Both the position numbers and the translations under genes were made by a program. The notes beneath the pieces were generated by a model. That model made no database searches. It was not told the origin of the DNA and saw nothing but the letters and a program-made list of their open reading frames with translations. This document shows, one piece after another, positions 27,994 to 38,760 of a stretch of 64,000 nt of DNA; the first letter of the stretch is position 1; the number at the start of each line of letters is the position of its first letter. The DNA lies in the NCBI GenBank assembly GCA_964543935.1, contig CAZJAK010000001.1:3912-67911 (forward strand), given 5' to 3'. The DNA comes from an uncultured Spirochaetaceae bacterium (lineage in GTDB: Bacteria; Spirochaetota; Spirochaetia; Sphaerochaetales; Sphaerochaetaceae).

Positions 27994-28733
27994 TCAGGGT
28001 GGAACATCTCACCAAACGTTTCGCAGTGAAAGGTTCACGCAAAACGGTTCTCGACGGCGTCTCGTTCGAGGCCTACGACTCACAGGTATTCGGACTGCTC
28101 GGTCCCAACGGTGCCGGCAAGACCACGACGTTGCGGACAATCGCCACCTTGCTCAAGCCGGAAGAGGGGCGGGTGGAAGTGGACGGGTTCGATGTCGTCA
28201 CCTCAGGCAAGGAAGTTCGCAACAGGATCGGATTTTTGACTGGCGACATGAAATTGTCGGGGCATCTGACCAGCAGGGAGATGCTGGCTTACTTCGGGGC
28301 GCTGAACCATATGCCTACCGGCAAGGTCGCCGAACGGATCGCCCAACTTTCGGCTAGTTTGGGTATGGATGATTTCCTTGACAAACCGATCGCGAAATTG
28401 TCGGCCGGCATGACGCAGAAGACATCGATTGCCGTGAGCTTGTTGCACGACCCCCATGTGATCGTGTTCGATGAACCGACGAGCAACCTCGACGTGTTGG
28501 CGGTGAAGGTCGTCGCTGATTTCATCCGTGACGCCAAAGCAGCCGGGAAATGCGTGGTGTTGTCCACCCATGTGCTCAGCGAGGCCGAACGGTTGTGCGA
28601 CCGGGTCGGCATCATCCATGATGGCCGCTTGCTCTGTAGCGGCACCCAAACAGAATTGCTCGAGCGTTACGGCGTGTCTTCACTTGAAGATCTGTTTTTT
28701 AGCTTGGTGAGCAACGGGGAGGCTTCCAAATGA
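27990..28733 (+). CDS. ABC transporter ATP-binding protein (ABC-2/NatA-like)
   Basis: Walker A GPNGAGKTT, signature LSAGMTQK and Walker B VIVFDEPTSNLD. ATG 27990 overlaps the pdxA TGA (ATGA), with AAGGAG 8 nt upstream. Confidence 0.9.
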   Translation: MIRVEHLTKRFAVKGSRKTVLDGVSFEAYDSQVFGLLGPNGAGKTTTLRTIATLLKPEEGRVEVDGFDVVTSGKEVRNRIGFLTGDMKLSGHLTSREMLAYFGALNHMPTGKVAERIAQLSASLGMDDFLDKPIAKLSAGMTQKTSIAVSLLHDPHVIVFDEPTSNLDVLAVKVVADFIRDAKAAGKCVVLSTHVLSEAERLCDRVGIIHDGRLLCSGTQTELLERYGVSSLEDLFFSLVSNGEASK

Positions 28734-29887
28734 TGCGCGATGCCCTCATCATATTCCGCAAAGAGATCAAAGGACTCGTCAAGGACCGCCGGACGCTGTT
28801 CTCCACCTTCATCCTGCCGCTCCTGGTAGTCCCCATCATCTTCATCGGGATGGGGACGGTGATCGGCTCGCTGCAGACTGAGGCGGTCGAGCATGTCTAC
28901 ACGGTCCGTTTTTCCGGTATTCAGGACGAGCGTTTTTTTTCAGCGGTGGCCCAACGGCTGCAGTACTCGGTTGCTCCAGAGGGCTTGTTTGCCGATATGG
29001 AGGTGGTGTTCCCGTCCGGCTATAGTGGCGGGCAGAACGCGGTAGTGCGGCTGGTGTACGATTCGAGCAGTCAGAAGAACCAGTATGCCGCCGGACAACT
29101 GGCCGATGCCGTGCGTTCGTTCGAACAAATGATTGCCGCCGAGAAGCTCGCCAAGGCCGGTCTTTCGTTGGCTGATTTGTCCACCATCAAAGTCGAGATG
29201 GTCGACACGGCTCCCGAGCAAGCCCAGTCGGGCGGTTCGATGCTCGGCATGATGATGCCCTATTTCTTGATCTTGTTCCTGTTCGCCGGGTCGATGGGGG
29301 CCGGTTTGGATGTGACGGCCGGGGAGAAGGAACGGGGTAGCTTGGCCGCCTTGTTGGTCAATCAGGTCTCGCGCACCTCGATCGCGATGGGCAAGATCCT
29401 CCATGTGATGACCGTAGCGATCTGTTCGGCTTTCGCGACCTTCGCCGGCTTGCTCATCGCCATGTCGATGCCCAATAGCGCTCCCGTTTTTGGCGGCGGG
29501 AACCTGGGTTCGGCAACCTTTACGGCCGGCATGCTGGCGACCATCCTGTTCTGCTTGGTTGCGGCGGCTTTGTTCACCGCAACGGTGGTGACCTTGTTGG
29601 GCAGCCTTGCCAAGACTGTCAAAGAAGCCAATACCTATGTGATGCCGGTTTACTTGGTGGTGGTGGTCGTCGGTGTATCGACCATGTACATGGATCCGAC
29701 CTCCAATGTGTTGCTATTTGCCATCCCGTATGTGAATATTGTGTTCAGCATGAAGGAAGCCTTCATGGGTATGAGCGTGCCGCTCCATCTGGCGCTTGCG
29801 TTGGCATCCAACGTGATCTACGCCGCTGCCGGGGTGCGCCTGGTCTCTGCCCTGTACAATTCTGAACGGATCTTGCAGACCGTCTGA
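28730..29887 (+). CDS. ABC-2-type transporter permease (NatB-like)
   Basis: 385 aa. One N-terminal TM helix is followed by a large extracytoplasmic loop and then 5 TM helices. ATGA overlap with the ATPase gene. Confidence 0.8.
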   Translation: MMRDALIIFRKEIKGLVKDRRTLFSTFILPLLVVPIIFIGMGTVIGSLQTEAVEHVYTVRFSGIQDERFFSAVAQRLQYSVAPEGLFADMEVVFPSGYSGGQNAVVRLVYDSSSQKNQYAAGQLADAVRSFEQMIAAEKLAKAGLSLADLSTIKVEMVDTAPEQAQSGGSMLGMMMPYFLILFLFAGSMGAGLDVTAGEKERGSLAALLVNQVSRTSIAMGKILHVMTVAICSAFATFAGLLIAMSMPNSAPVFGGGNLGSATFTAGMLATILFCLVAAALFTATVVTLLGSLAKTVKEANTYVMPVYLVVVVVGVSTMYMDPTSNVLLFAIPYVNIVFSMKEAFMGMSVPLHLALALASNVIYAAAGVRLVSALYNSERILQTV

Positions 29888-29913
29888 CGATCTGAGGAGC
29901 CGCTGGAGGAGTC

Positions 29914-30999
29914 ATGAAACGAACATCCTTGATCTTGGTGCTCGTGGTGCTGGTCGCGCTGTTTGCCGCCAGCGGATGCGCTACGACCGTATCGGTCAGG
30001 CATTTGATACCGGCCGAGACCGACATGTCGGCTTACCGGAATCTCGCCGTGGCCTCGACCGAGCCTTTCTCGTTCGGATTTTTCAACCGGCCGTCGTCGA
30101 TCGTCCCCGATTATTCGGGCAAGTCGGGCCTGACTGTCGCGAGCGGCTTCGGCACCTTCACCGAGTTGTCCATCGCCCGCTACGCCACAACGCGGTTGGT
30201 GCAGTCGTTGGACCGGGCCGATTATTTCACGCTGTTGCCCCCTTCGCAGACCGATACGATCATGAAGGGCAAGAACCTCGGCTTCACCATCTCGGAGATG
30301 CTGATGCGCAATGGAGTCGAGGCGTTGTTCACTAGTTCGATTGATTATCTCGATGTGGATGAATACATCTATGCTGTCGAGAAAAACCTGCTCATAAGCA
30401 AGGACCCGGTCACCGGCAATCCGATCAATCCTCCGGTCAGCCAGAAAGTCATCGTGTATTACTTGATGCAGAAGGTCAGCTTGACCTACTCGTACGAGAT
30501 CGTCGATGCCCGCACCGGCAAGGTGATTGTGAGCCGGACCCTCCACGACAGCCAGGAGCGCTCCTTTGACCTCACCGGAAAACCGGCCAAAGGCTATGTG
30601 GCTCCATCGTTGGAACCGATGATCGAAGAGATGTTGCAGGATTTGATCGATCCAGTTGTCCAACAGATTGCACCGAGGTGGGAGACCACCACGTTAAGCC
30701 TGATGAAGAATGAACCCGAGCGAAAGAACGTTGAATTCGCTTGGGAGGAGGTGCGGCGAGGAAACTTGGCCATCGCACTGGAAGCTTTCAAAAAGGAATG
30801 GAACCGCAGTGGCCATATCCCTTCAGGCTATAACGCTGCCTTGATCATGGAAGCAATGGGAAACCTTGAACAAGCTATCGACTTGATGGAAGATGTCTAT
30901 CAAGAGAGCGGCAACAATTCGATTTATTCGATGCTGCGCAGGATGCGCCAGCGTTTGCAGGACCAAGCCGAGGCCGAAGCACAGCTGTTGGGGCAATAA
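29914..30999 (+). CDS. Hypothetical lipoprotein with helical (TPR-like) C-terminus
   Basis: MKRTSLILVLVVLVALFAASGC is a signal peptide plus ASGC lipobox. I recognise no family. Confidence 0.62.
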   Translation: MKRTSLILVLVVLVALFAASGCATTVSVRHLIPAETDMSAYRNLAVASTEPFSFGFFNRPSSIVPDYSGKSGLTVASGFGTFTELSIARYATTRLVQSLDRADYFTLLPPSQTDTIMKGKNLGFTISEMLMRNGVEALFTSSIDYLDVDEYIYAVEKNLLISKDPVTGNPINPPVSQKVIVYYLMQKVSLTYSYEIVDARTGKVIVSRTLHDSQERSFDLTGKPAKGYVAPSLEPMIEEMLQDLIDPVVQQIAPRWETTTLSLMKNEPERKNVEFAWEEVRRGNLAIALEAFKKEWNRSGHIPSGYNAALIMEAMGNLEQAIDLMEDVYQESGNNSIYSMLRRMRQRLQDQAEAEAQLLGQ

Positions 31000-31010
31000 G
31001 GGAATCCTCC

Positions 31011-31547
31011 ATGGCGAAACGGGTGAGCTTGTTGATGGTCTACACAGGTGATGGCAAAGGCAAGACCAGTGCCGCGATGGGCTTGGCGTTGCGGTGTTAC
31101 GGCCATGGCGGCCACTGTGCCGTCGCCCAGTTCATCAAAGCGCCCGAGGTGGAGACTGGCGAACGGCGCGCAGCTGTGTCGCTCGGGATGGAGTGGCGCA
31201 ATTTCGGATCTGGTTTCACCTGGATGCAAGCCGACGATACAGCCAATCGCGAGGCATGCCGGCTCGGTTGGGAAACCGCCAAGGAATGGATGCAGTCGGG
31301 CCGTTTCGACATGGTCGTCTTGGACGAATTCACCTATCCATTGTCATTGGGCTATCTTGATGTGTCCGCTGTCTGCCTTTGGTTGGCAGACCACAAGGGA
31401 TTGGAGCATTTCCCCCATGTGGTGGTCACCGGCAGGAACGCCCCCGCACCGTTGCTGGCAGTTGCCGACTTGGTCAGCGAGATTGTGGAAGTGAAACACC
31501 ATTGGCGCACAGCACGGACCAAGGCTCAAGCGATGGTGGAATATTGA
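31011..31547 (+). CDS. cobO: Cob(I)yrinic acid a,c-diamide / cob(I)alamin adenosyltransferase (CobO/BtuR type)
   Basis: VYTGDGKGKTSAAMGLALR P-loop, FIK...GE, and the LDEFTYPL motif typical of CobA/CobO. Confidence 0.85.
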   Translation: MAKRVSLLMVYTGDGKGKTSAAMGLALRCYGHGGHCAVAQFIKAPEVETGERRAAVSLGMEWRNFGSGFTWMQADDTANREACRLGWETAKEWMQSGRFDMVVLDEFTYPLSLGYLDVSAVCLWLADHKGLEHFPHVVVTGRNAPAPLLAVADLVSEIVEVKHHWRTARTKAQAMVEY

Positions 31548-31594
31548 TTTTTGTGAAAACATAGCCGCTTGTGCAAGTAAGCCCTGATTTTTCT

Positions 31595-31622
31595 TCTACA
31601 AACTCAAGAAACAGGATATAAT
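31595..31622 (+). promoter_or_regulatory. Sigma70-like promoter of the PHP-ATPase-RloB-LuxR cassette
   Basis: Perfect TATAAT at 31617-31622. TCTACA (4/6 match to TTGACA) sits at 31595-31600 with a 16-nt spacer. A GAGG SD is 8 nt before the ATG at 31643. Confidence 0.4.
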
Positions 31623-31642
31623 CGCCGCATGAGGTTCTGCTG

Positions 31643-32296
31643 ATGGGATTCATCGAAGTTCATTCACACCTGTTGCCTTTCGTCGATGACGGGGTCGGAA
31701 CCAAAGAATCCTGCCTGGCGGTCCTCGAAGCGTACGCCGCAGCAGGTTTCGACCGCGTGGTCGTGACGCCGCACTTGTACAACCCGTATGTATCCACCAG
31801 GACACAGAACATCAGGGCCATGTATGCGTGGGCGGCGCAAGAGGCCAAGCGGATGGGGCTCGCGTTGTATTTGGGCAGCGAAATTTACGTGGGGATGTCC
31901 GACAGCACCAATGTGTTGCCGTTCATGGGCAGGTTCGTGCTGGTTGAGGTCGATTACTATTCTGAACCGTTGTTCCTTGTCAACCACGCCTACACATTGC
32001 TCAAACGGGGTTACCATGTGGTGTTGGCTCATGTCGAACGGTACCGCTGGTTCTCGACAAAGAGCCCTCTGGCTGTGAAGCTGCGCGAATTGGGTGTCCA
32101 TTTCCAATGCAATGTCGACGGGGTCGAATCGGGTGTCGCCGCCAAATGGATGGCTAGTGGCTGGATAGACGTTCTGGCGGGCGACAATCACGGGGATGCT
32201 GGTCTGCCGGCCAAATTGGCCGCCATGTTGCAACGTTATCCAGAAATATCGGCTAGGATGGAATCTCTGTTCATCGCCGATGAAGCAATCATATAG
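31643..32296 (+). CDS. CpsB/YwqE-type PHP-domain protein-tyrosine phosphatase
   Basis: IEVHSHLLPFVDDG, TPHLYNP, GSEIY, LAHVERY, QCNVDG and GDNHG match, in order, the metal-binding His/Asp motifs of the CpsB family (from memory of the family pattern). Confidence 0.8.
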   Translation: MGFIEVHSHLLPFVDDGVGTKESCLAVLEAYAAAGFDRVVVTPHLYNPYVSTRTQNIRAMYAWAAQEAKRMGLALYLGSEIYVGMSDSTNVLPFMGRFVLVEVDYYSEPLFLVNHAYTLLKRGYHVVLAHVERYRWFSTKSPLAVKLRELGVHFQCNVDGVESGVAAKWMASGWIDVLAGDNHGDAGLPAKLAAMLQRYPEISARMESLFIADEAII

Positions 32297-32308
32297 GGAG
32301 GGGCTCAT

Positions 32309-33541
32309 ATGCTGCTCGACTTGACGGTTTCCAACTTCCGTTCCGTTCAGTCACCGCAAACGATCTCGTTCGAAGCCGTCAAGGACAATCGGCTTCCCGA
32401 ATCAAAGGTGGTGAGGGTTTCTGACAAATTGAAAGTGATCAAGACCAGTGCGATCATCGGTCCCAACGGAGCCGGAAAGAGCACGATGGTCAGGGCTCTG
32501 GAAGCCCTCAAGGCGATCATCGTAGCGCCGGCAGAAGTGGAGAATCCCCTTCAATTGCTGGCCGGCACTTCGTTCGCCTATTCGGAGACGAAAGGCGGTC
32601 CTGCCAACATGGTGTTGGATTTGATCCTGGGCAGCGACGAGGCTTCCGGCTTGCCCATTGTCGGCCGTTTCACCTTCGTGGCCGACCGTGAGAAGGTCTT
32701 CGAGGAGTCGTTCTACCACATCATCGGACGTTCCAAGAAACTGATGTACGAGCGCAAGCTGATCGACGGCGACGCAGAAACCCTCGCGTACCGCTATCGT
32801 TGGGGCAAGCTGTTCAGGGGCGAAAAGAAACGGATGCTTCCCAAGGTCACCCCGAAACAACTCTACTTGAGTGCAGCCGCCCGCAAGGGCAGTCCGACTT
32901 TGACCCCGTTGTTCCAGTGGTTCTCGGAGTCGTTGATGATCCTGCCTTTCGGGCTTTCGACCCAGAGCGAAAAGGTCATCGTGGAACAGCTGGTCAAGCA
33001 TCCCGGCTGGAAAAAGCAGTTGATCGATTTCCTGTGGAGCATCGATATCACCGACATCCGTGATGTGCGCATCCAGGATGACAAGGTTGTCTTCGTCCAC
33101 ACCAACGTCAATCAGCATTATGCCTCGTATTTCTCCAGCGAGTCGCTCAGCCTCAGGCGTTTGACCTCGATCGCGATGGCGATGTTCGAGAGTTTCTCCA
33201 GTCCGCGCTGCTTGGTGATAGACGACTTCGGGATGCTGCTCCATCCGGCCGCCTTGGAACATCTGGTGAGCGTGTTCGAATCGGGCAATGTCGGCAACGG
33301 TTCCCAAGTGTTGGCGGTCGATTGCAATCCTTCGTTACTGCGCGACGGGCTGCTCCGGCGCGATGCCGTGTGGTTCGCCGAGAAAAACAAGGAATCGGCG
33401 ACAGTGTATTACAGCTTGGCCGACTTCAAGTTCTCTCGGTCCAAGGAACGGACGGAGATGCTCTACCTCAATGGCGCTTTCGGGGCCTTGCCGATCACCA
33501 GCGAATACAGCTTTTCCGATGACGTGAAGAAGGAGCGTTGA
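32309..33541 (+). CDS. ABC/SMC-like AAA ATPase (AAA_21/AAA_15 type, AbiLi/AriA-like)
   Basis: N-terminal LTVSNFRSV...TISFE strand motif, Walker A GPNGAGKST, signature-like ESLSLRRLTS, and a Walker B/H-loop CLVIDDFGMLLHP. A GGGAGGGG SD is 5 nt upstream. The gene starts 12 nt after the PHP gene stop. Confidence 0.85.
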   Translation: MLLDLTVSNFRSVQSPQTISFEAVKDNRLPESKVVRVSDKLKVIKTSAIIGPNGAGKSTMVRALEALKAIIVAPAEVENPLQLLAGTSFAYSETKGGPANMVLDLILGSDEASGLPIVGRFTFVADREKVFEESFYHIIGRSKKLMYERKLIDGDAETLAYRYRWGKLFRGEKKRMLPKVTPKQLYLSAAARKGSPTLTPLFQWFSESLMILPFGLSTQSEKVIVEQLVKHPGWKKQLIDFLWSIDITDIRDVRIQDDKVVFVHTNVNQHYASYFSSESLSLRRLTSIAMAMFESFSSPRCLVIDDFGMLLHPAALEHLVSVFESGNVGNGSQVLAVDCNPSLLRDGLLRRDAVWFAEKNKESATVYYSLADFKFSRSKERTEMLYLNGAFGALPITSEYSFSDDVKKER

Positions 33542-33543
33542 AC

Positions 33544-34188
33544 ATGAAGAGAAAAAAAGTCCATCAAGAGCCAAGGAAATCGATGTTGATCGTAACCTCG
33601 ACCGAGGCGGAGGCACTCTACTTCTCCCAGATGCGCAAAGATTGCCGTTACACCAACTTGACGGTCCGCTGGGGTGAAGGTGCGGCGAGCCTCGATGAAT
33701 TGATCTCCGAGACGGCCCGCATCCGTACAGCTGGAAAATTCGACAACGCTTGGGCGGTGTTTGGATTCGACGCCTTCACGGTCACATGGGATCACGTCAG
33801 AAGCGCCTTGGAGAAAGCCGAAACCAAGAAGATCAAGCTTGCGTGGAACAATCCTGGTTTTCCATTGTGGTACCTGTTGCATATCCAAGCTCCCCGCTTG
33901 CCGATCGGCGACATGGCAGTGGTGGTGAACTCGTTGCGTGGCCATCTGGCAAAATTCGATCCGGGGGCCCAGTATCTGTTGCAAGAAGGCAACTCGCTCC
34001 ACCTGCGCCTGTTCCCGTTGAAAGCTCAGGCGGTGTTGAACGCTGGTGCCTACAACGCCTTGACCGAGCGGCGCAATGGAGGAATGCAGTCGACCACGAT
34101 GGTCCGTCTGCTCAGCGAAATCACCGAATGGTGCGGCTTGGCCGACATCTCCCATAACCAAAAACTGATCGGATTGAAGAATTCATGA
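33544..34188 (+). CDS. RloB-like (Toprim-related) protein, AbiLii-like, apparently degenerate
   Basis: MLIVTSTEAEALYF, AWAVFGFD and KLAWNNPGFPLWYLLHIQ line up with my recollection of the RloB pattern (LIVCEGxxTExxYF ... VFDxD ... SNPCFElWlLLH). The ATG at 33544 has AAGGAG 8 nt upstream, inside the ATPase 3' end. Confidence 0.65.
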   Translation: MKRKKVHQEPRKSMLIVTSTEAEALYFSQMRKDCRYTNLTVRWGEGAASLDELISETARIRTAGKFDNAWAVFGFDAFTVTWDHVRSALEKAETKKIKLAWNNPGFPLWYLLHIQAPRLPIGDMAVVVNSLRGHLAKFDPGAQYLLQEGNSLHLRLFPLKAQAVLNAGAYNALTERRNGGMQSTTMVRLLSEITEWCGLADISHNQKLIGLKNS

Positions 34189-35075
34189 CGATGCTCGGAC
34201 AGGGGCTTTCCATCCTGTTGTACATGTTTGCTTTCGCCACGGGGTGCATGACCTTGGTGCTCTCCGTGGTGTTCCATTTGCGTGAATCGTACCAATGGAC
34301 TAAATACTTCATCGTCTTCCATTCATCGCTCCTGCTGGTCATCGTGTTGCAAGTCCTGCACGTGTTCGTCAATGTATTTGTCGGCGATACGCTCGGGGCG
34401 GTCCTTTCCTATGTGATCAAAGCTTTGTTGGCGGCCAATGTCAGCTTCCTCATGGTGTTCATCCCTTATTTCACCACTTGGGTGATCGCGCAACCGTGGC
34501 GCAATCCCTACAAGGCCGTATTTTTCTTAATTGCGGCGGCCTACACGGCCTTGTCGGTCCTCGACACGGTGTTCCTCACCATCAAAGCGCTTGAATCATG
34601 GATGGTGGTCGTCTTTTGCTTGGTGATCTTTTTCTGCGTCGGCACGATCGTGGTCAACCTCAAGACCATCAAGCGCCACGACGTGCGCACGGTGAGCAAT
34701 GCCATCATCATCCTCTCGTTCGTCATGATGCCGTTGCTGGTAGTCAGCGTGTTCATCCCGACTGTGCGCTACATCACCTATCCGTTGTACTTCATGGCCT
34801 TCTCGATCATCATCCTGGTCTACCTGTTCATTTACTTCCGACGCATCCCGCAAGAGGTGCCCAAAGTCCTGACCATCGAGAGCTTGGAGAAGTATCACAT
34901 CACCGAACGGGAATTCTCGGTGATCCAGTTGATCAAGGCCGGGCAGACCAACAAGGAAATAGCCGACAAGCTTGACATCTCGGTGAACACGGTGAACAAT
35001 CATGTGGCGAACATCTATGCCAAGATGCAGGTACGCAGCCGTATCGACTTGTTGAACGCGCTGCATGAAGCCTGA
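34185..35075 (+). CDS. Membrane-anchored (about 7 TM) LuxR-family transcriptional regulator
   Basis: About seven hydrophobic helices span residues 1-225. They are followed by a LuxR/GerE HTH: ITEREFSVIQLIKAGQTNKEIADKLDISVNTVNNHVANIYAKMQV. ATGA overlap with the RloB-like stop. Confidence 0.8.
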   Translation: MTMLGQGLSILLYMFAFATGCMTLVLSVVFHLRESYQWTKYFIVFHSSLLLVIVLQVLHVFVNVFVGDTLGAVLSYVIKALLAANVSFLMVFIPYFTTWVIAQPWRNPYKAVFFLIAAAYTALSVLDTVFLTIKALESWMVVVFCLVIFFCVGTIVVNLKTIKRHDVRTVSNAIIILSFVMMPLLVVSVFIPTVRYITYPLYFMAFSIIILVYLFIYFRRIPQEVPKVLTIESLEKYHITEREFSVIQLIKAGQTNKEIADKLDISVNTVNNHVANIYAKMQVRSRIDLLNALHEA

Positions 35076-35088
35076 CGGAGGGACCGTT

Positions 35089-35892
35089 ATGGAAGGCCAA
35101 GCGTTGCCTCAAGTGCGCCGGTGCGCGCGTCCGATCGTGTTGACCCACCCAGAGGGTGCCGACAGGGCCATCGTGGCCTGCCATGGGTTCACCGGGTATG
35201 CCGGGGAGTTGGCTTTGCCCGCCAAGCGGTTGTTCGAAGCAGGGTTCGACGTCTATGTGCCGCGCTATCCGGGACACGGCACCAACGGCAAGGATTTCAT
35301 GGCCAGCACTGCTGAGGATTGGATGGGTGCTGCCGAGCGCCAACTGGACGAACTGGAAGGCAAGTACCAGGGCATTTCATTGATGGGCCATTCGATGGGA
35401 GGTGCCATCGCCGTCGTCGCAGCCCGGCATCGGAACATTGAAAAGATGGTCCTCTATGCACCAGCGTTGGCGTTGCCGACCATTCCGGTCAGAACGATAA
35501 GGTTTCTCAGCCATTTCATCAAGCGCAAAGGCCGCCCGTGGGCTCGCGATCCACGCTATGTGTTCTTCGATGAACGCGATCCGGATGACGACGAGTTCCT
35601 CGGACGCGAGTATTGGTCGTACCTCTATCCCGCCCAAGTGCTGGAATTGTTGCGGATCAAGGAGCGCGCAGTGGAAGCTTTGCCTGAAGTGAAGGCCGAT
35701 ATCTTGGTGTTCACTGGCGGCGAGGATGCGGTGATACCGCAGGAAGTCGGCCCGCTTGTCTTGTCGACCGGCAAAGGCAAGAACAATTGGATCCATCTGC
35801 CACTGGCCAGCCATTTGATTCCCTATGATAAGGATGAAAGTTCGCGCGAACAGGCCATGAACCGCACGGTGGCATGGTTGACCCAGTCATAG
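35089..35892 (+). CDS. Alpha/beta hydrolase (esterase/lipase-like)
   Basis: GHSMGG nucleophile elbow and HGFTG oxyanion region. The ATG at 35089 has a GGAGGG SD 6 nt upstream and lies 13 nt after the LuxR stop. Confidence 0.8.
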   Translation: MEGQALPQVRRCARPIVLTHPEGADRAIVACHGFTGYAGELALPAKRLFEAGFDVYVPRYPGHGTNGKDFMASTAEDWMGAAERQLDELEGKYQGISLMGHSMGGAIAVVAARHRNIEKMVLYAPALALPTIPVRTIRFLSHFIKRKGRPWARDPRYVFFDERDPDDDEFLGREYWSYLYPAQVLELLRIKERAVEALPEVKADILVFTGGEDAVIPQEVGPLVLSTGKGKNNWIHLPLASHLIPYDKDESSREQAMNRTVAWLTQS

Positions 35893-37128
35893 CCGCACGA
35901 TTGTCTCGACGACCGTATCGATCCCGTTGCGGATGTCCTCGGCATCAAGCTCAATTTCCACATCGGGCATCAGCGAGCCATCTGGTGCGCCATCGGCATG
36001 GAAATATTTGGTCGAATACCCGACTTGGTGCAAGCTAGCCGGCAACGTGAAGCGTTTGACCTCGCCGTAATGACTGGCACTGCCTCCAGAGGGGGTGCCC
36101 GCGAGGGTGCAATCGGTCCGGGCTTTGAGATGCAATGCGTTGAGGATCGCCGATGAGAAGGTCGAGCTGCCGATCAGAGCGAACAGTTGAAAGCCGTAGG
36201 ACTTCTGGAGTCGGCCCAGCAACTTCACTGTTGGTTCGAACAGGCGTGAATCGCCCCCACCGTTGTAACGCAGGTCCACGATGACTTTTTGCGGATGCTT
36301 GGCCATGATGGCTTGCTCGATGTCGGCATTGAAGTCGTCCAGTGGGTAAGCGTTGTCCTCGGAGCACCGGTTGTATTGGATGAACACCACCGCAGATGTC
36401 CCCATGTCAACGATCCGGTAGAATTCGGTCCCCGGGGATGTCGGAGGACGATTGGTTTGCAAGTAGCTGTATTCCATCCCCGGTTCGGCAAGCGGGATGG
36501 TCACTTCAATCTCTTGGCCGTCGGTTGTGATGGTGAACAGGCAACTGCCAACTTGGTCGATGATCCGGCAGTGCCCAAGCGCAGAAGCGTTGCGCATCAG
36601 ACGGGCACACTGCTGCATCCGCCACACCTCGTTGTCCGCACTCACATATGATTCTAGGACGCGGGCGACATCCTCGATCGGTGTACCGTTGATGGCAGTC
36701 ACGCAACCTCCCACCAGATCAGCATAAGGTGAGGCAATGGCCGTGACAACATGACGTCCTCCGATTGGAGTGAGTTGGATAGCCAGATAGCGCATCGAGG
36801 AGGCCACCGCCGTAGAAGCAGTGACCGTGGTGTGCGAATCCCCCATCAAGGCGGCCAACCGACAGAGCGCAAAGTAAAAGGCGGTCTGGTCCAAATTGTC
36901 TGCTTGGCTGAACACCTCTGCGCACGCATCAGCGAACACATCGGCCTTGACGTTGGCCCACGGGTTTTTATGGCGGTCCGCCAACGTCGTGGCGAAGGTC
37001 TTCAAGTCGGATGCTTGCGAGAGCGCTAAAGAGCTCTCATTGAGAAACGGATGGTGCAACTGCGCACGAGCTGGACCGATTGCCCCGAACACGGCAACGG
37101 TGAGCAGCATCAACCTGAAAAGGAACAT
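35887..37128 (-). CDS. S41-family (tail-specific/C-terminal processing-like) peptidase, secreted
   Basis: VIVDLRYNGGGDS and GSSTFSSAIL are S41 catalytic-region motifs. The start is set at MFLFRLMLLTVAVFGAIGPARA (signal peptide, 37128). Confidence 0.72.
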   Translation of the reverse strand: MFLFRLMLLTVAVFGAIGPARAQLHHPFLNESSLALSQASDLKTFATTLADRHKNPWANVKADVFADACAEVFSQADNLDQTAFYFALCRLAALMGDSHTTVTASTAVASSMRYLAIQLTPIGGRHVVTAIASPYADLVGGCVTAINGTPIEDVARVLESYVSADNEVWRMQQCARLMRNASALGHCRIIDQVGSCLFTITTDGQEIEVTIPLAEPGMEYSYLQTNRPPTSPGTEFYRIVDMGTSAVVFIQYNRCSEDNAYPLDDFNADIEQAIMAKHPQKVIVDLRYNGGGDSRLFEPTVKLLGRLQKSYGFQLFALIGSSTFSSAILNALHLKARTDCTLAGTPSGGSASHYGEVKRFTLPASLHQVGYSTKYFHADGAPDGSLMPDVEIELDAEDIRNGIDTVVETIVRL

Positions 37129-37199
37129 GTCCCGATGATAACGCGTTGCGATTCGTGATGCAATCGGGGTGATTGTTGGCTGTCTGTCGATGTTCAATG

Positions 37200-37226
37200 T
37201 TGCCACTTTTTCCTTTTTGCTATAAA
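37200..37226 (+). promoter_or_regulatory. Candidate gltX promoter (TTGCCA, then 15 nt, then TGcTATAAA)
   Basis: TTGCCA at 37200-37205 and an extended -10, TGCTATAAA, ending at 37226. The ATG is at 37279. The spacer is shorter than optimal. Confidence 0.3.
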
Positions 37227-37278
37227 ACTGTAGCAGCCGGGCCATCAAGGCACCGGGCAGTCAGGAGGAAGCCTTTCC

Positions 37279-38760
37279 ATGGATGTTCGGGTCCGCTATG
37301 CCCCGTCACCGACGGGATTGCAACACATCGGCGGCGTCAGGACGGCGCTGTTCAACTATTTCTTTGCCAAAAGTCAAGGCGGCACCTTCATCCTGCGGGT
37401 CGAAGACACCGATCAGGGACGTTCCACCGACGAAGCATTGCAGGACCTCTACGACACGCTGCAATGGTTGGGTGTCAAGTGGGACGAGGGTCCCATCGTG
37501 GGCGGCCCCTATGGTCCGTACATCCAAAGCGAGCGCTTCGCAATCTACCAGGAATATGCCCGGCAGTTGGTCGAGTCGGGCAAGGCCTATCCGTGTTACT
37601 GTTCGGAGGAGCGCTTGGAACAGGTCCGACAGCAACAGGTTGCCGCCAAAGCCCAGGAGCAGGGCTACGACCGCCACTGCCGCAACCTCGACGCCGACCA
37701 AAAGGCCGCCTATGAGCGACAAGGCCTCAGGCCGGTCATTCGGTTGAAGGTTCCCCTCGAGGGGAGCACGACCTTCCACGATGTGCTGATGGGTGACATC
37801 ACCCGCAAGAACCGCGATGTCAATCCCGATCCGGTATTGCTCAAGTCGGACGGATTCCCTACCTATCACTTGGCCAACGTCATCGACGATCATCTGATGG
37901 GCATCACCCATATCATGCGGGCTCAGGAATGGATTCCTTCGGGACCGTTGCACATCCTGCTGTACGAAGCGTTCGGCTGGAAAGCCCCGCTGTACTGCCA
38001 TTGGCCCAGGGTGATGGGCAAGGACGGCCAGAAACTCTCCAAGCGGCACGGATCGACTTCGGTGCGTGAATTCAAGGAGAAGGGCTACTTGCCCGAAGCC
38101 CTCATGAATTATGTGAGCATGGTCGGGTGGTCTTACGACGGGGTCAAGGAGTTCTTCAGCAAGGAGGAACTCGAACGGCTGTTCGTGTTGGAGAAGATCA
38201 ACAAAGCTCCCGGAGTGTTCGACTACAAGAAGCTGGATTGGTACAACGGGATGTACATCAGGGCAAAGAGCGATGCCGAGTTGGTTGCGTTGATCACGCC
38301 CTACTTGGTGCGGTCCTCGTTGGTGGCCGACCCGCCGACGGAGGCCCAACATGCCACGATTCTTGCTTTGGTGCCGGTCGTGAAAGAACGCCTCAAGGTC
38401 CTATCCGACGTGGTCGACATGACCCGCTTCGTCTTTGCCGACATTCCCGCTCCGTCGGTCGAGGAATTGTTGCCCAAGAACCAAGATGTCGCGACGACTC
38501 TGGCGGCATTGCAAAAGGCGGTAGCGGTTATCTCGGACATGGGCCGGCGCAGCGACGAGGAACTCGAACAGGAGATGGCTTCGATCGCCCAATCGATGGG
38601 GATCAAGATCAACGGGATTTTCATGCCGGTGCGCATGGCTGTCACCGGCAGCACGGTGAGCCCTCCTCTGTTCGATTCAATCAGATTGTTGGGTTTTGAG
38701 CACGCAATGGTCCGCCTAGAACGGGCGGTAGCGATACTTACGCGAGAAATGGGGAAGTGA
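37279..38760 (+). CDS. gltX: Glutamate--tRNA ligase
   Basis: RYAPSPTGLQHIGGVRTALFNY (HIGH) and KLSKRHG (KMSKS). Confidence 0.95.
   Translation: MDVRVRYAPSPTGLQHIGGVRTALFNYFFAKSQGGTFILRVEDTDQGRSTDEALQDLYDTLQWLGVKWDEGPIVGGPYGPYIQSERFAIYQEYARQLVESGKAYPCYCSEERLEQVRQQQVAAKAQEQGYDRHCRNLDADQKAAYERQGLRPVIRLKVPLEGSTTFHDVLMGDITRKNRDVNPDPVLLKSDGFPTYHLANVIDDHLMGITHIMRAQEWIPSGPLHILLYEAFGWKAPLYCHWPRVMGKDGQKLSKRHGSTSVREFKEKGYLPEALMNYVSMVGWSYDGVKEFFSKEELERLFVLEKINKAPGVFDYKKLDWYNGMYIRAKSDAELVALITPYLVRSSLVADPPTEAQHATILALVPVVKERLKVLSDVVDMTRFVFADIPAPSVEELLPKNQDVATTLAALQKAVAVISDMGRRSDEELEQEMASIAQSMGIKINGIFMPVRMAVTGSTVSPPLFDSIRLLGFEHAMVRLERAVAILTREMGK

Follow-up and report, generated by a model that had tools for sequence, protein, structure and literature searches.

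An AbiL-type ATPase and an RloB-like Protein with Degenerate Active Sites, Conserved beside a PHP Phosphoesterase in the Sphaerochaetaceae

Genes at the Locus

The stretch of DNA analysed here (the window: 64,000 nucleotides of contig CAZJAK010000001.1, from an uncultured Spirochaetaceae bacterium of the family Sphaerochaetaceae) carries three consecutive genes on its forward strand, encoding a PHP phosphoesterase, an ATP-binding cassette (ABC) ATPase and an RloB-like protein. The last two are related to the AbiL defence pair, and both depart from it at residues that define the active sites of their families. In sequences from related genomes the same departures recur at the same chromosomal position, and the pair is under purifying selection. 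The three genes, with positions counted from the first letter of the window, are:

31643..32296, + strand: short CpsB/YwqE-type PHP phosphoesterase of 217 residues, first gene of the trio (Pfam CpsB_CapC)
32309..33541, + strand: AbiLi-like ABC/SMC-type ATPase of 410 residues with a degenerate nucleotide site (PADLOC, Pfam, AlphaFold2 with Foldseek)
33544 (ATG)..34188 (TGA), + strand: RloB-family protein (Toprim superfamily) of 214 residues, apparently without metal-A ligands (Pfam, PADLOC, hhalign, AlphaFold2)

Family Membership and Fold of the RloB-like Protein

Both members of the pair are recognised by models of known families. The product of 33544-34188 matches the Pfam RloB model PF13707 with 61.6 bits (cut-off 31.5) over profile positions 2-195 of 195, and the PADLOC AbiLii model at 8.4e-11; the ATPase encoded at 32309-33541 matches PADLOC AbiLi at 4.7e-58. 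Judged by these profiles, the ancestry of the first protein truly lies in the RloB/AbiLii family of Toprim nucleases, and the two matches therefore identify the locus by homology as an AbiL-type ATPase and RloB pair. The assignment of RloB to the Toprim superfamily itself rests on the literature, in which the protein is an effector with a conserved Glu and DxD (PMC12065111) and is treated as a Toprim effector in a second study as well (PMC10440598).

Comparison with ordinary RloB proteins was made by profile. A set of 144 close homologs of the window protein was collected, and a profile of these was searched against 1.84 billion representative proteins, returning 2640 RloB relatives but just 29 representatives of the window protein's own subfamily. 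The alignment of this clade (A1) matches a canonical reference of 50 more distant, ordinary RloB proteins (A2) with an hhalign probability of 99.95 and an E value of 1.2e-38. Residue frequencies at single columns were counted on 119 clade members and 94 canonical RloB proteins, and it is to these two sets that the fractions below refer.

An AlphaFold2 model of the RloB-like protein has a mean predicted local distance difference test score (pLDDT) of 90.1 and a beta-alpha-beta-alpha-beta-alpha-beta core. Its strands (residues 14-18, 39-43, 68-74 and 98-102) and the order of its elements fit the four-stranded parallel sheet of Toprim domains, and the model superposes on that of a phage RloB-like protein with a template modelling (TM) score of 0.64. 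A search of PDB sequences with the window protein found nothing, and one with the canonical RloB profile retrieved only the expression tags (TENLYFQSM) of unrelated entries, because TENLYFQS, which contains the tobacco etch virus (TEV) protease site ENLYFQS, resembles the family motif TE..YF. In the window protein the motif lies in EALYFSQM (residues 23-30, positions 33610-33633). Such tag hits are an artefact to watch for in searches with this family. NCBIfam holds no model that matches either the RloB-like protein or the ATPase.

Loss of Toprim Active-site Residues

The codons of the residues at issue, and of a C-terminal motif special to the clade, lie at the following positions:

33598..33612, + strand: S19-T20-E21-A22-E23, with Ser19 at the Toprim Glu and Glu23 as the kept second Glu (hhalign and column counts)
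33763..33771, + strand: G74-F75-D76, where DxD reads GxD (column counts)
33862..33864, + strand: Pro107, at the Glu of the NPCFE.W.LLH block (column counts)
34132..34164, + strand: CGLADISHNQK, residues 197-207, a clade-specific motif that canonical RloB lacks and that lies beyond the end of the hhalign match

The three conserved blocks of the family read MLIVTSTEAEALYF (residues 14-27), VFGFD (72-76) and NNPGFPLWYLLH (102-113) in the window protein; these readings, like CLVIDDF in the ATPase, agree with those of a preliminary description made by eye. That description held that the CEG glutamate is replaced by Thr or Ser and the first Asp of VFDxD by Gly. Both replacements are borne out by the hhalign alignment with canonical RloB, which places Ser19, Gly74 and Pro107 on Glu, Asp and Glu, respectively. 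The position of Ser19, the CEG or Toprim glutamate, is Glu in 82/94 canonical proteins, whereas clade members have Ala (96) or Ser (21 of 119) and none is acidic (0/119). Gly74 falls on the first Asp of DxD, a residue present in 93/94 canonical proteins; the clade has Gly in 100, Ser in 16 and Asp in 1 of its 119 members. The preliminary description also took the third block to be well kept, which is true of P104, W109 and H113 but overlooks the loss of its Glu (93/94 canonical proteins), replaced by Pro107 in the window protein and occupied in the clade by Pro (58), Ser (22), Ala (13), Glu (11) or Asp (8).

Two further acidic positions behave differently. Glu23 corresponds to the "TE" glutamate, found in 93/94 canonical and 115/119 clade proteins, and Asp76 to the second DxD position, which is Asp (66) or Glu (27) in canonical proteins and variable in the clade. 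The preliminary description had named Glu and DxD equivalents at TEAE and GFD as the finding that would speak for an intact site. Asp76 does stand for the second Asp, but Glu23 is the second Glu rather than the Toprim Glu; its spacing is that of E404 of the Burkholderia pseudomallei OLD nuclease (BpOLD), a metal-B helper, and the Toprim Glu and first Asp are left without an equivalent. Counted together, 81/94 canonical proteins carry an acidic residue at every one of the five positions and 83/94 have both metal-A ligands; in the clade the count is 0/119 in both cases.

The consequences of these losses can be gauged from BpOLD, in which E400, D455 and D457 hold metal A while E404 (E400 + 4), T506 and E508 hold metal B, and in which triple mutants of either metal site no longer cleave linear DNA (PMC6755086). 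In the AlphaFold2 model residue 19 follows directly on strand 1, residue 74 ends strand 3 and residue 107 begins the helix after strand 4, so that all three are predicted to lie where Toprim proteins have the corresponding residues, in the case of 19 and 74 the Toprim Glu and DxD. By the shared E/E + 4 spacing, the window protein would lack both direct metal-A ligands and one metal-B ligand. Having lost the Toprim Glu, the third acidic motif and the first Asp of DxD, it is most likely unable to cut nucleic acid in the two-metal manner of Toprim enzymes. The earlier suggestion of a protein that retains its fold but is probably dead as a nuclease thus finds support, at the level of sequences and models, in the hhalign match and the confident predicted structure.

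Conservation in the clade lies elsewhere. Invariant or nearly invariant segments include helix 1 (YFSQMRKDCRY.N), the NP..LW.LLH block, a Y..G..H..LF segment and the C-terminal CG.AD.SHNQK, in which C197, G198, A200, D201 and N205 are invariant in alignment A1. Cys34 (33643-33645) and Cys197 (in C197-G-L-A-D201, 34132-34146) are invariant in the window clade only; a bound metal or a disulfide between them could fasten the new tail at the C-terminus to the core. The sister families described below carry CGxC(F/Y) in this C-terminal part (loci L045-L052), in contrast to CGxAD in the window's family.

The Partner ATPase

The nucleotide-binding motifs of the ATPase are:

32459..32482, + strand: Walker A, GPNGAGKS, residues 51-58; intact, invariant in 40 orthologs and present in all three families
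33140..33160, + strand: ABC signature region, ESLSLRR, residues 278-284; canonical ESxGTxR, with Gly changed to Ser
33212..33226, + strand: Walker B, LVIDD, residues 302-306; Asp306 at the catalytic Glu
33317..33325, + strand: H-loop position, VDC, residues 337-339; switch His changed to Cys339

The AlphaFold2 model of the ATPase has a pLDDT of 83.5, and its best Foldseek matches are PtuA, Rad50, SMC heads and the Thermus scotoductus (Ts) OLD nuclease, all with probability 1.0. The match to Pfam AAA_21 is much reduced, at 40 bits over profile positions 3-110, compared with 109 bits over positions 1-304 for the canonical ATPase that the genome also encodes. Relative to canonical AbiLi, a stretch of about 55 residues ahead of the signature motif is deleted.

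An alignment of 25 syntenic orthologs from three families with 9 canonical AbiLi proteins from related genomes locates the changes. The Walker B context CLVIDDF occupies residues 301-307 of the 410-residue protein, and the Asp that the preliminary description read in place of Glu is general, with DD in 25/25 orthologs and DE in 9/9 canonical proteins. The H-loop, T/S-T/S-H in all 9 canonical proteins, is D-C in the window's family and G-V or D-S in its sisters. The sister families (f7 and f20) still have the signature Gly, which the window's own family has lost. An ABC site without a Walker B Glu bears the hallmark of a degenerate site that hydrolyses poorly (PMC7544095). With the P-loop kept but the Walker B Glu changed to Asp, the His to Cys and the signature Gly to Ser, three changes by which a degenerate ABC site is defined, the ATPase should bind ATP and hydrolyse it slowly or not at all.

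Descent of the Pair and Selection upon It

The genome from which the window comes also encodes a second AbiLi/RloB pair (genome G000, contig C42, locus L032, at 95-1450 and 1441-2043, both on the + strand). This pair has every canonical residue, with CEG..TE, DKD and FEFW in RloB and ESEGT, IDE and TTH in the ATPase, and scores 106 bits (RloB) and 109 bits (ATPase) against the family models. The loss of residues is thus specific to the window locus.

The degenerate pair is widespread within a narrow group of spirochaetes. The gene order lipoprotein-cobO-PHP-ATPase-RloB-LuxR-hydrolase-gltX-glyS is kept in 16 loci from 16 genomes and 15 genera of Sphaerochaetaceae, always with the pair between cobO and gltX, and the PHP, ATPase and RloB genes are contiguous in two sister families too (9 loci). 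The ATPase is found, nearly always in single copy, in 237/258 species genomes of Sphaerochaetaceae and in 143/148 of the high-quality ones; in a sample of 301 genomes spread evenly over the class it occurs in three families only, the Sphaerochaetaceae and the two sisters. Scanned with a sequence pattern, 185,579 species genomes yielded 185 relatives, the best 80 of which all come from Sphaerochaeta, Sphaerochaetaceae, Pleomorphochaeta or unnamed spirochaete records.

In a maximum-likelihood tree the 25 syntenic RloB proteins form one clade with a long stem, nested within canonical RloB (Shimodaira-Hasegawa-like approximate likelihood ratio test value 100), and the branching inside it follows the three families. 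Pairwise distances correlate with those of GltX (Spearman 0.74 for the ATPase and 0.67 for RloB, against 0.77 for GlyS as control). On this phylogeny the changes in both proteins arose once, at the base of the ortholog clade, and were then passed on vertically; judged by the alignments, the active-site losses are fixed traits of one clade and not private mutations. Recent horizontal acquisition of the pair was considered and ruled out by the flat guanine-plus-cytosine content of the region, the conserved synteny and the divergence that tracks GltX.

The three families also allow an order of loss to be read. In the sister families RloB position 19 is Ala, Ser or Cys, the DxD reads N-P-x-D and the third Glu is kept, while the ATPase has DD, no switch His and a retained signature Gly. 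The first-Asp position of RloB is accordingly Asn in these two families and Gly, Ser, Thr or Ala in the third, the window's own, which is further changed, with Gly or Ser at 74, Pro, Ser or Ala at 107 and Ser in the signature. If, as these sequences indicate, the sisters show the older state, the Walker B Glu, H-loop His and Toprim Glu went first, together with the change of Asp to Asn, and the signature Gly and third Glu followed. E21 and E23 vary in several genera as well, so that constraint at the acidic positions looks relaxed. Together with the segments conserved elsewhere in the protein, this is what one would expect of an early loss of catalysis with continued selection on binding surfaces.

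Loss of catalytic residues in both proteins could also be the mark of a decaying, functionless remnant of a defence module, and one RloB ortholog (G017:C8:5336-5968) and one PHP ortholog (G023:C8:17933-18568) do contain an in-frame stop, TAA in each. Each of these two stops may mark a pseudogene restricted to its lineage or an error of assembly. Nearly all of the 237 genomes have intact frames, dozens of residues outside the catalytic motifs are invariant, and the pair is kept even in a genome of 1.2 Mb. Nonsynonymous divergence (dN) in the closest pair of genomes is 0.11 for the ATPase and 0.21 for RloB, compared with 0.15 for gltX, so that the ATPase evolves more slowly than this housekeeping gene. 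Only dN is given, and no ratio to synonymous divergence, because synonymous sites are saturated even within the genus; saturation together with low dN indicates strong purifying selection on both genes, as strong as that on the neighbouring housekeeping genes. Decay is therefore barely credible as an explanation, and is already contradicted by the conservation seen across the orthologs.

The PHP Phosphoesterase and Neighbouring Genes

The upstream PHP protein is, to judge from its motifs, the only member of the trio with an intact catalytic centre. Pfam places it in CpsB_CapC (1.8e-25), a comparison with solved structures matches it to CpsB (2wjd) and YwqE (3qy6) at about 1e-8, and 22 orthologs share its metal ligands (H.H, D, H, H.R and D..DNHG) without exception. 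The match to NCBIfam Cps4B, 45 bits, is far below the equivalog cut-off of 400, and the flanking genes are cobO and the ATPase gene, not a BY-kinase or capsule locus. Close homologs are found only in this spirochaete clade. The PHP gene is present, always adjacent, in 16/19 genomes that have the pair and in 0/22 that lack it (Fisher p 9e-9, uncorrected for phylogeny). Five small-genome genera without the pair have the order lipoprotein-cobO-LuxR-gltX-glyS (cobO being undetected in two of the five loci), which shows that exactly three genes, those for PHP, ATPase and RloB, are missing; a sixth apparent absence (G007) is a contig end.

This strict association, with the ancestry of the pair in AbiL and the intact metal site of the PHP protein, gives some substance to the idea that the locus continues to serve in defence, as a lineage-fixed system with an exchanged effector. 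The roles of sensor and adaptor would then fall to the ATPase and the dead RloB, and infection would release or activate the effector, either the PHP enzyme or another protein. Swaps of effector domains on ABC-ATPase defence scaffolds are indeed well documented (PMC10440598, PMC12065111). Against this stand the single copy of the pair at one fixed site, its near-universal presence in three families and its divergence in step with housekeeping genes, whereas canonical RloB, where these genomes have it, is sporadic in its occurrence and encoded on other contigs. There is no defence-island context at the locus, the trio's neighbours in the window being cobO, gltX and glyS; the would-be sensor ATPase itself lacks hydrolytic residues; and in three genomes the pair survives without the PHP gene. 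A swapped effector is on balance unlikely.

The surroundings of the trio add the following features:

31595..31622, + strand: promoter-like site TCTACA-16-TATAAT ahead of the PHP gene, with 10/12 consensus matches (consensus only)
33531..33535, + strand: Shine-Dalgarno sequence AGGAG, 8 nucleotides upstream of the RloB ATG (read from the sequence)
34185..35075, + strand: membrane protein with a C-terminal LuxR/GerE helix-turn-helix (GerE match 1.1e-18), its start overlapping the RloB stop (ATGA)

The ATPase and RloB genes are separate open reading frames, 2 nucleotides apart and in different frames. The ATPase stop codon (33539-33541) falls between the Shine-Dalgarno AGGAG and the RloB ATG at 33544; an alternative RloB start, TTG at 33538, would leave a spacer of just 2 nucleotides. 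A consensus scan inside the cassette gave no credible terminator, and an Rfam scan of window positions 28000-38000 at E values up to 0.1 gave no match.

The overlap of start and stop codons made the LuxR-type membrane regulator (7TM-LuxR) a candidate for an obligate partner of the pair. It was rejected, as genera without the trio retain the gene and two genomes with the pair do not have it. Across the family the GerE/LuxR membrane protein is encoded by almost all genomes, whether or not the trio is present, and more distant paralogs (26-29% identity) are found elsewhere in several genomes. Farther downstream, between the hydrolase gene and gltX, an open reading frame of 453 residues lies on the - strand (window positions 35887-37248), with a marginal match to Peptidase_S41 (24.1 bits, cut-off 24). 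It looks like an insertion specific to this genome, because the gap between hydrolase and gltX in the closest relatives (loci L011 and L012) is only about 240 nucleotides.

Comparison with Related ATPase-Toprim Systems

The closest described relative is AbiL, an abortive-infection system of Lactococcus, with which the locus shares an AAA_21/ABC ATPase gene followed by a translationally coupled RloB gene of about 200 codons, and whose PADLOC and Pfam models both proteins match. It differs from AbiL in each component. The RloB-like protein lacks the Toprim Glu, first DxD Asp and third Glu and has gained the C-terminal CG.AD.SHNQK; the ATPase lacks the Walker B Glu, H-loop His, signature Gly and about 55 residues. 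AbiL is sporadic or plasmid-borne, whereas the window locus is chromosomal, single-copy, syntenic, near-universal and linked to PHP. The window protein is accordingly filed as RloB by homology and not as part of a functional AbiL system, because the defining catalytic features were looked for and are absent.

PARIS likewise pairs an ABC ATPase with a separate protein of the Toprim superfamily. In its nuclease AriB the helix that follows the Toprim Glu contacts the ATPase (PMC11464382), and the equivalent helix 1 (YFSQMRKDCRY) is the most conserved segment of the window RloB. AriB is of DUF4435 type, and its acidic set of E26, D30, D88, E90 and E122 is both present and required, the E26A mutation abolishing PARIS activity (PMC11464382); the window protein has no equivalents of E26, D88 and E122. 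PADLOC finds no AriB match at the locus and Pfam no DUF4435 at E values up to 1, with only a weak AriA match (1.5e-9). PARIS is moreover mobile and often phage-borne.

The OLD nucleases (class 2 of Burkholderia pseudomallei and class 1 of Thermus scotoductus) also combine an ABC ATPase with a Toprim domain; the fold search with the ATPase recovers Ts OLD (6p74), and the E400/E404 spacing equals that of positions 19 and 23 of the window RloB. OLD unites both functions in one polypeptide with a complete two-metal site, whereas the window locus divides them between two proteins and lacks the metal-A ligands. The upstream gene for its part matches the CpsB/YwqE PHP phosphatases and keeps their metal ligands, but its product is some 30-45 residues shorter and is encoded only next to the degenerate ATPase-RloB pair.

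Partial precedents for a degenerate nucleotide site come from membrane transporters. TAP1 carries the same kinds of degenerate-site substitution as the window ATPase. The degenerate sites of heterodimeric ABC exporters (for example ABCB11 and MRP1) have lost the Walker B Glu and have a changed switch His and signature, and they bind ATP but hydrolyse it poorly (PMC7544095). In those exporters one degenerate site works beside one active site, whereas the window ATPase resembles a soluble SMC/Rad50-like head, and every site of a homo-oligomer would be degenerate.

The nearest functional precedent may be RecF-RecR, which likewise joins an ABC/SMC-type ATPase to a Toprim protein that does not cut. 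RecF-RecR is a housekeeping recombination mediator that uses its Toprim domain for binding and not for cleavage. The Toprim domain of RecR was reportedly described by Aravind and colleagues in 1998. The likeness is one of analogy, as the two systems are not homologous at the family level and the Walker B of RecF is active. Replacement of RecF and RecR by the pair was considered and rejected, recR being present in 37/41 and recF in 41/41 related genomes, that of the window included.

Proposed Function

Taken together, the sequence features make it rather likely that the pair is an exapted derivative of AbiL, consisting of an ATP-binding switch and a non-cleaving Toprim subunit, a former defence module turned to cellular use. 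In an ancestral module of AbiL type the ATPase would hold a toxic nuclease; we infer that this module was exapted into a cellular complex with a role outside defence. Within it the ATPase would serve as ATP-binding switch or scaffold. The RloB-like subunit, keeping the helix-1 surface and the NP..LW.LLH block, would act in binding or as an adaptor without cleaving, and all chemistry would come from the PHP enzyme.

The preliminary description had foreseen that its residue changes would alter the working of an AbiL/PARIS-like module. The losses are real, and wider than it stated (the third Glu, the H-loop His and the signature Gly are gone as well), but the locus is not simply an altered defence system of AbiL/PARIS type. 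It is instead a single-copy, syntenic, vertically inherited set in an order-level clade of spirochaetes, tied to a PHP phosphoesterase.

Several observations weigh against exaptation to a cellular role without cleavage. Near-universal syntenic presence argues against a typical mobile defence system, yet it is compatible with a fixed one. A Walker B Asp can support slow hydrolysis. Foldseek of the RloB-like model against the PDB gave no significant match and no Toprim protein among the best 50. That the three proteins are co-transcribed and physically interact is something we infer from gene order only, and the absence of the PHP gene from three genomes that keep the pair (G003, G008 and G024) means that this gene is not indispensable. 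Residual features of the Toprim site belong to the same list. The window protein keeps two of the five acidic positions, Glu23 and Asp76, and no others; among close relatives, 115/119 have E21 and 102/119 an acidic residue at 76 or 77; and retention of a block whose W109 and H113 are invariant in canonical RloB suggests that some active-site function may persist. BpOLD with one metal site intact retains some nicking activity on supercoiled DNA (PMC6755086).

These last features are what a remodelled nuclease would show, a protein that still cuts through a site built from E21, E23, D76/77, H113 and perhaps new Cys and His residues, by one metal or by some other mechanism. E23 is as frequent as E21 in the close relatives, W109 and H113 are as invariant there as in canonical RloB, and the newly invariant C34, H153, C197 and D201 could form a site; the BpOLD mutants that nick lack all ligands of one metal site. 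Yet no clade member has both metal-A ligands, and E21 and E23 are non-acidic in several genera that keep the gene under selection: the segment reads QSS (L018), PAL (L022), EAN or ELI within the window's family, and in distant syntenic orthologs the two positions vary to Gln, Ser, Asn, Pro, Leu, Arg, Gly or Ile. No acidic position is invariant over the whole orthologous group, and by modelled secondary structure C34 lies at the far end of helix 1, at the edge of the sheet opposite the Toprim site. Cleavage through a remodelled site is therefore decidedly improbable.

The exaptation reading can be carried a step further, to a more tentative proposal that is possible but held with less than even confidence. 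The trio would be a lineage-specific cellular machine, derived from an AbiL-type immune module that was domesticated at the root of the Sphaerochaetales-like clade. In such a machine the substrate, a nucleic acid or a phosphoprotein, would be bound by the dead Toprim, with the ATPase in its ATP-bound state controlling access and the PHP enzyme carrying out phosphoester chemistry.

Implications for Annotation and for the Evolution of Defence Modules

A practical consequence concerns annotation. The PADLOC AbiLi and AbiLii models match the locus, and automated annotation will thus probably call AbiL in hundreds of Sphaerochaetaceae genomes; on the residues described above, such calls by defence-finding tools are probably wrong at this locus. 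A full-text literature search returned nothing on a degenerate RloB clade or on Sphaerochaeta, and the pair occurs in cultured hosts, Sphaerochaeta pleomorpha (strain Grapes, where SpiGrapes_2998 is the ortholog of the ATPase), S. halotolerans (such as 4-11) and Pleomorphochaeta.

The ATPase-nuclease pairs AbiL, PARIS, OLD, Septu and Gabija are studied as mobile immune systems, and recruitment of such modules to host functions is known from no more than a few old examples (RecF/RecR and SMC relatives). In the Sphaerochaetaceae the transition appears to be caught in sequence, with canonical and degenerate copies in one genome and an order of losses that can be read from living families, and the derived pair has become part of a near-core gene set with a new catalytic partner. 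If the domestication proposed here is true, no earlier case will have been documented in which a defence pair of ATPase and Toprim protein was turned into a core, non-immune component of the cell, parallel to RecF-RecR or SbcCD.

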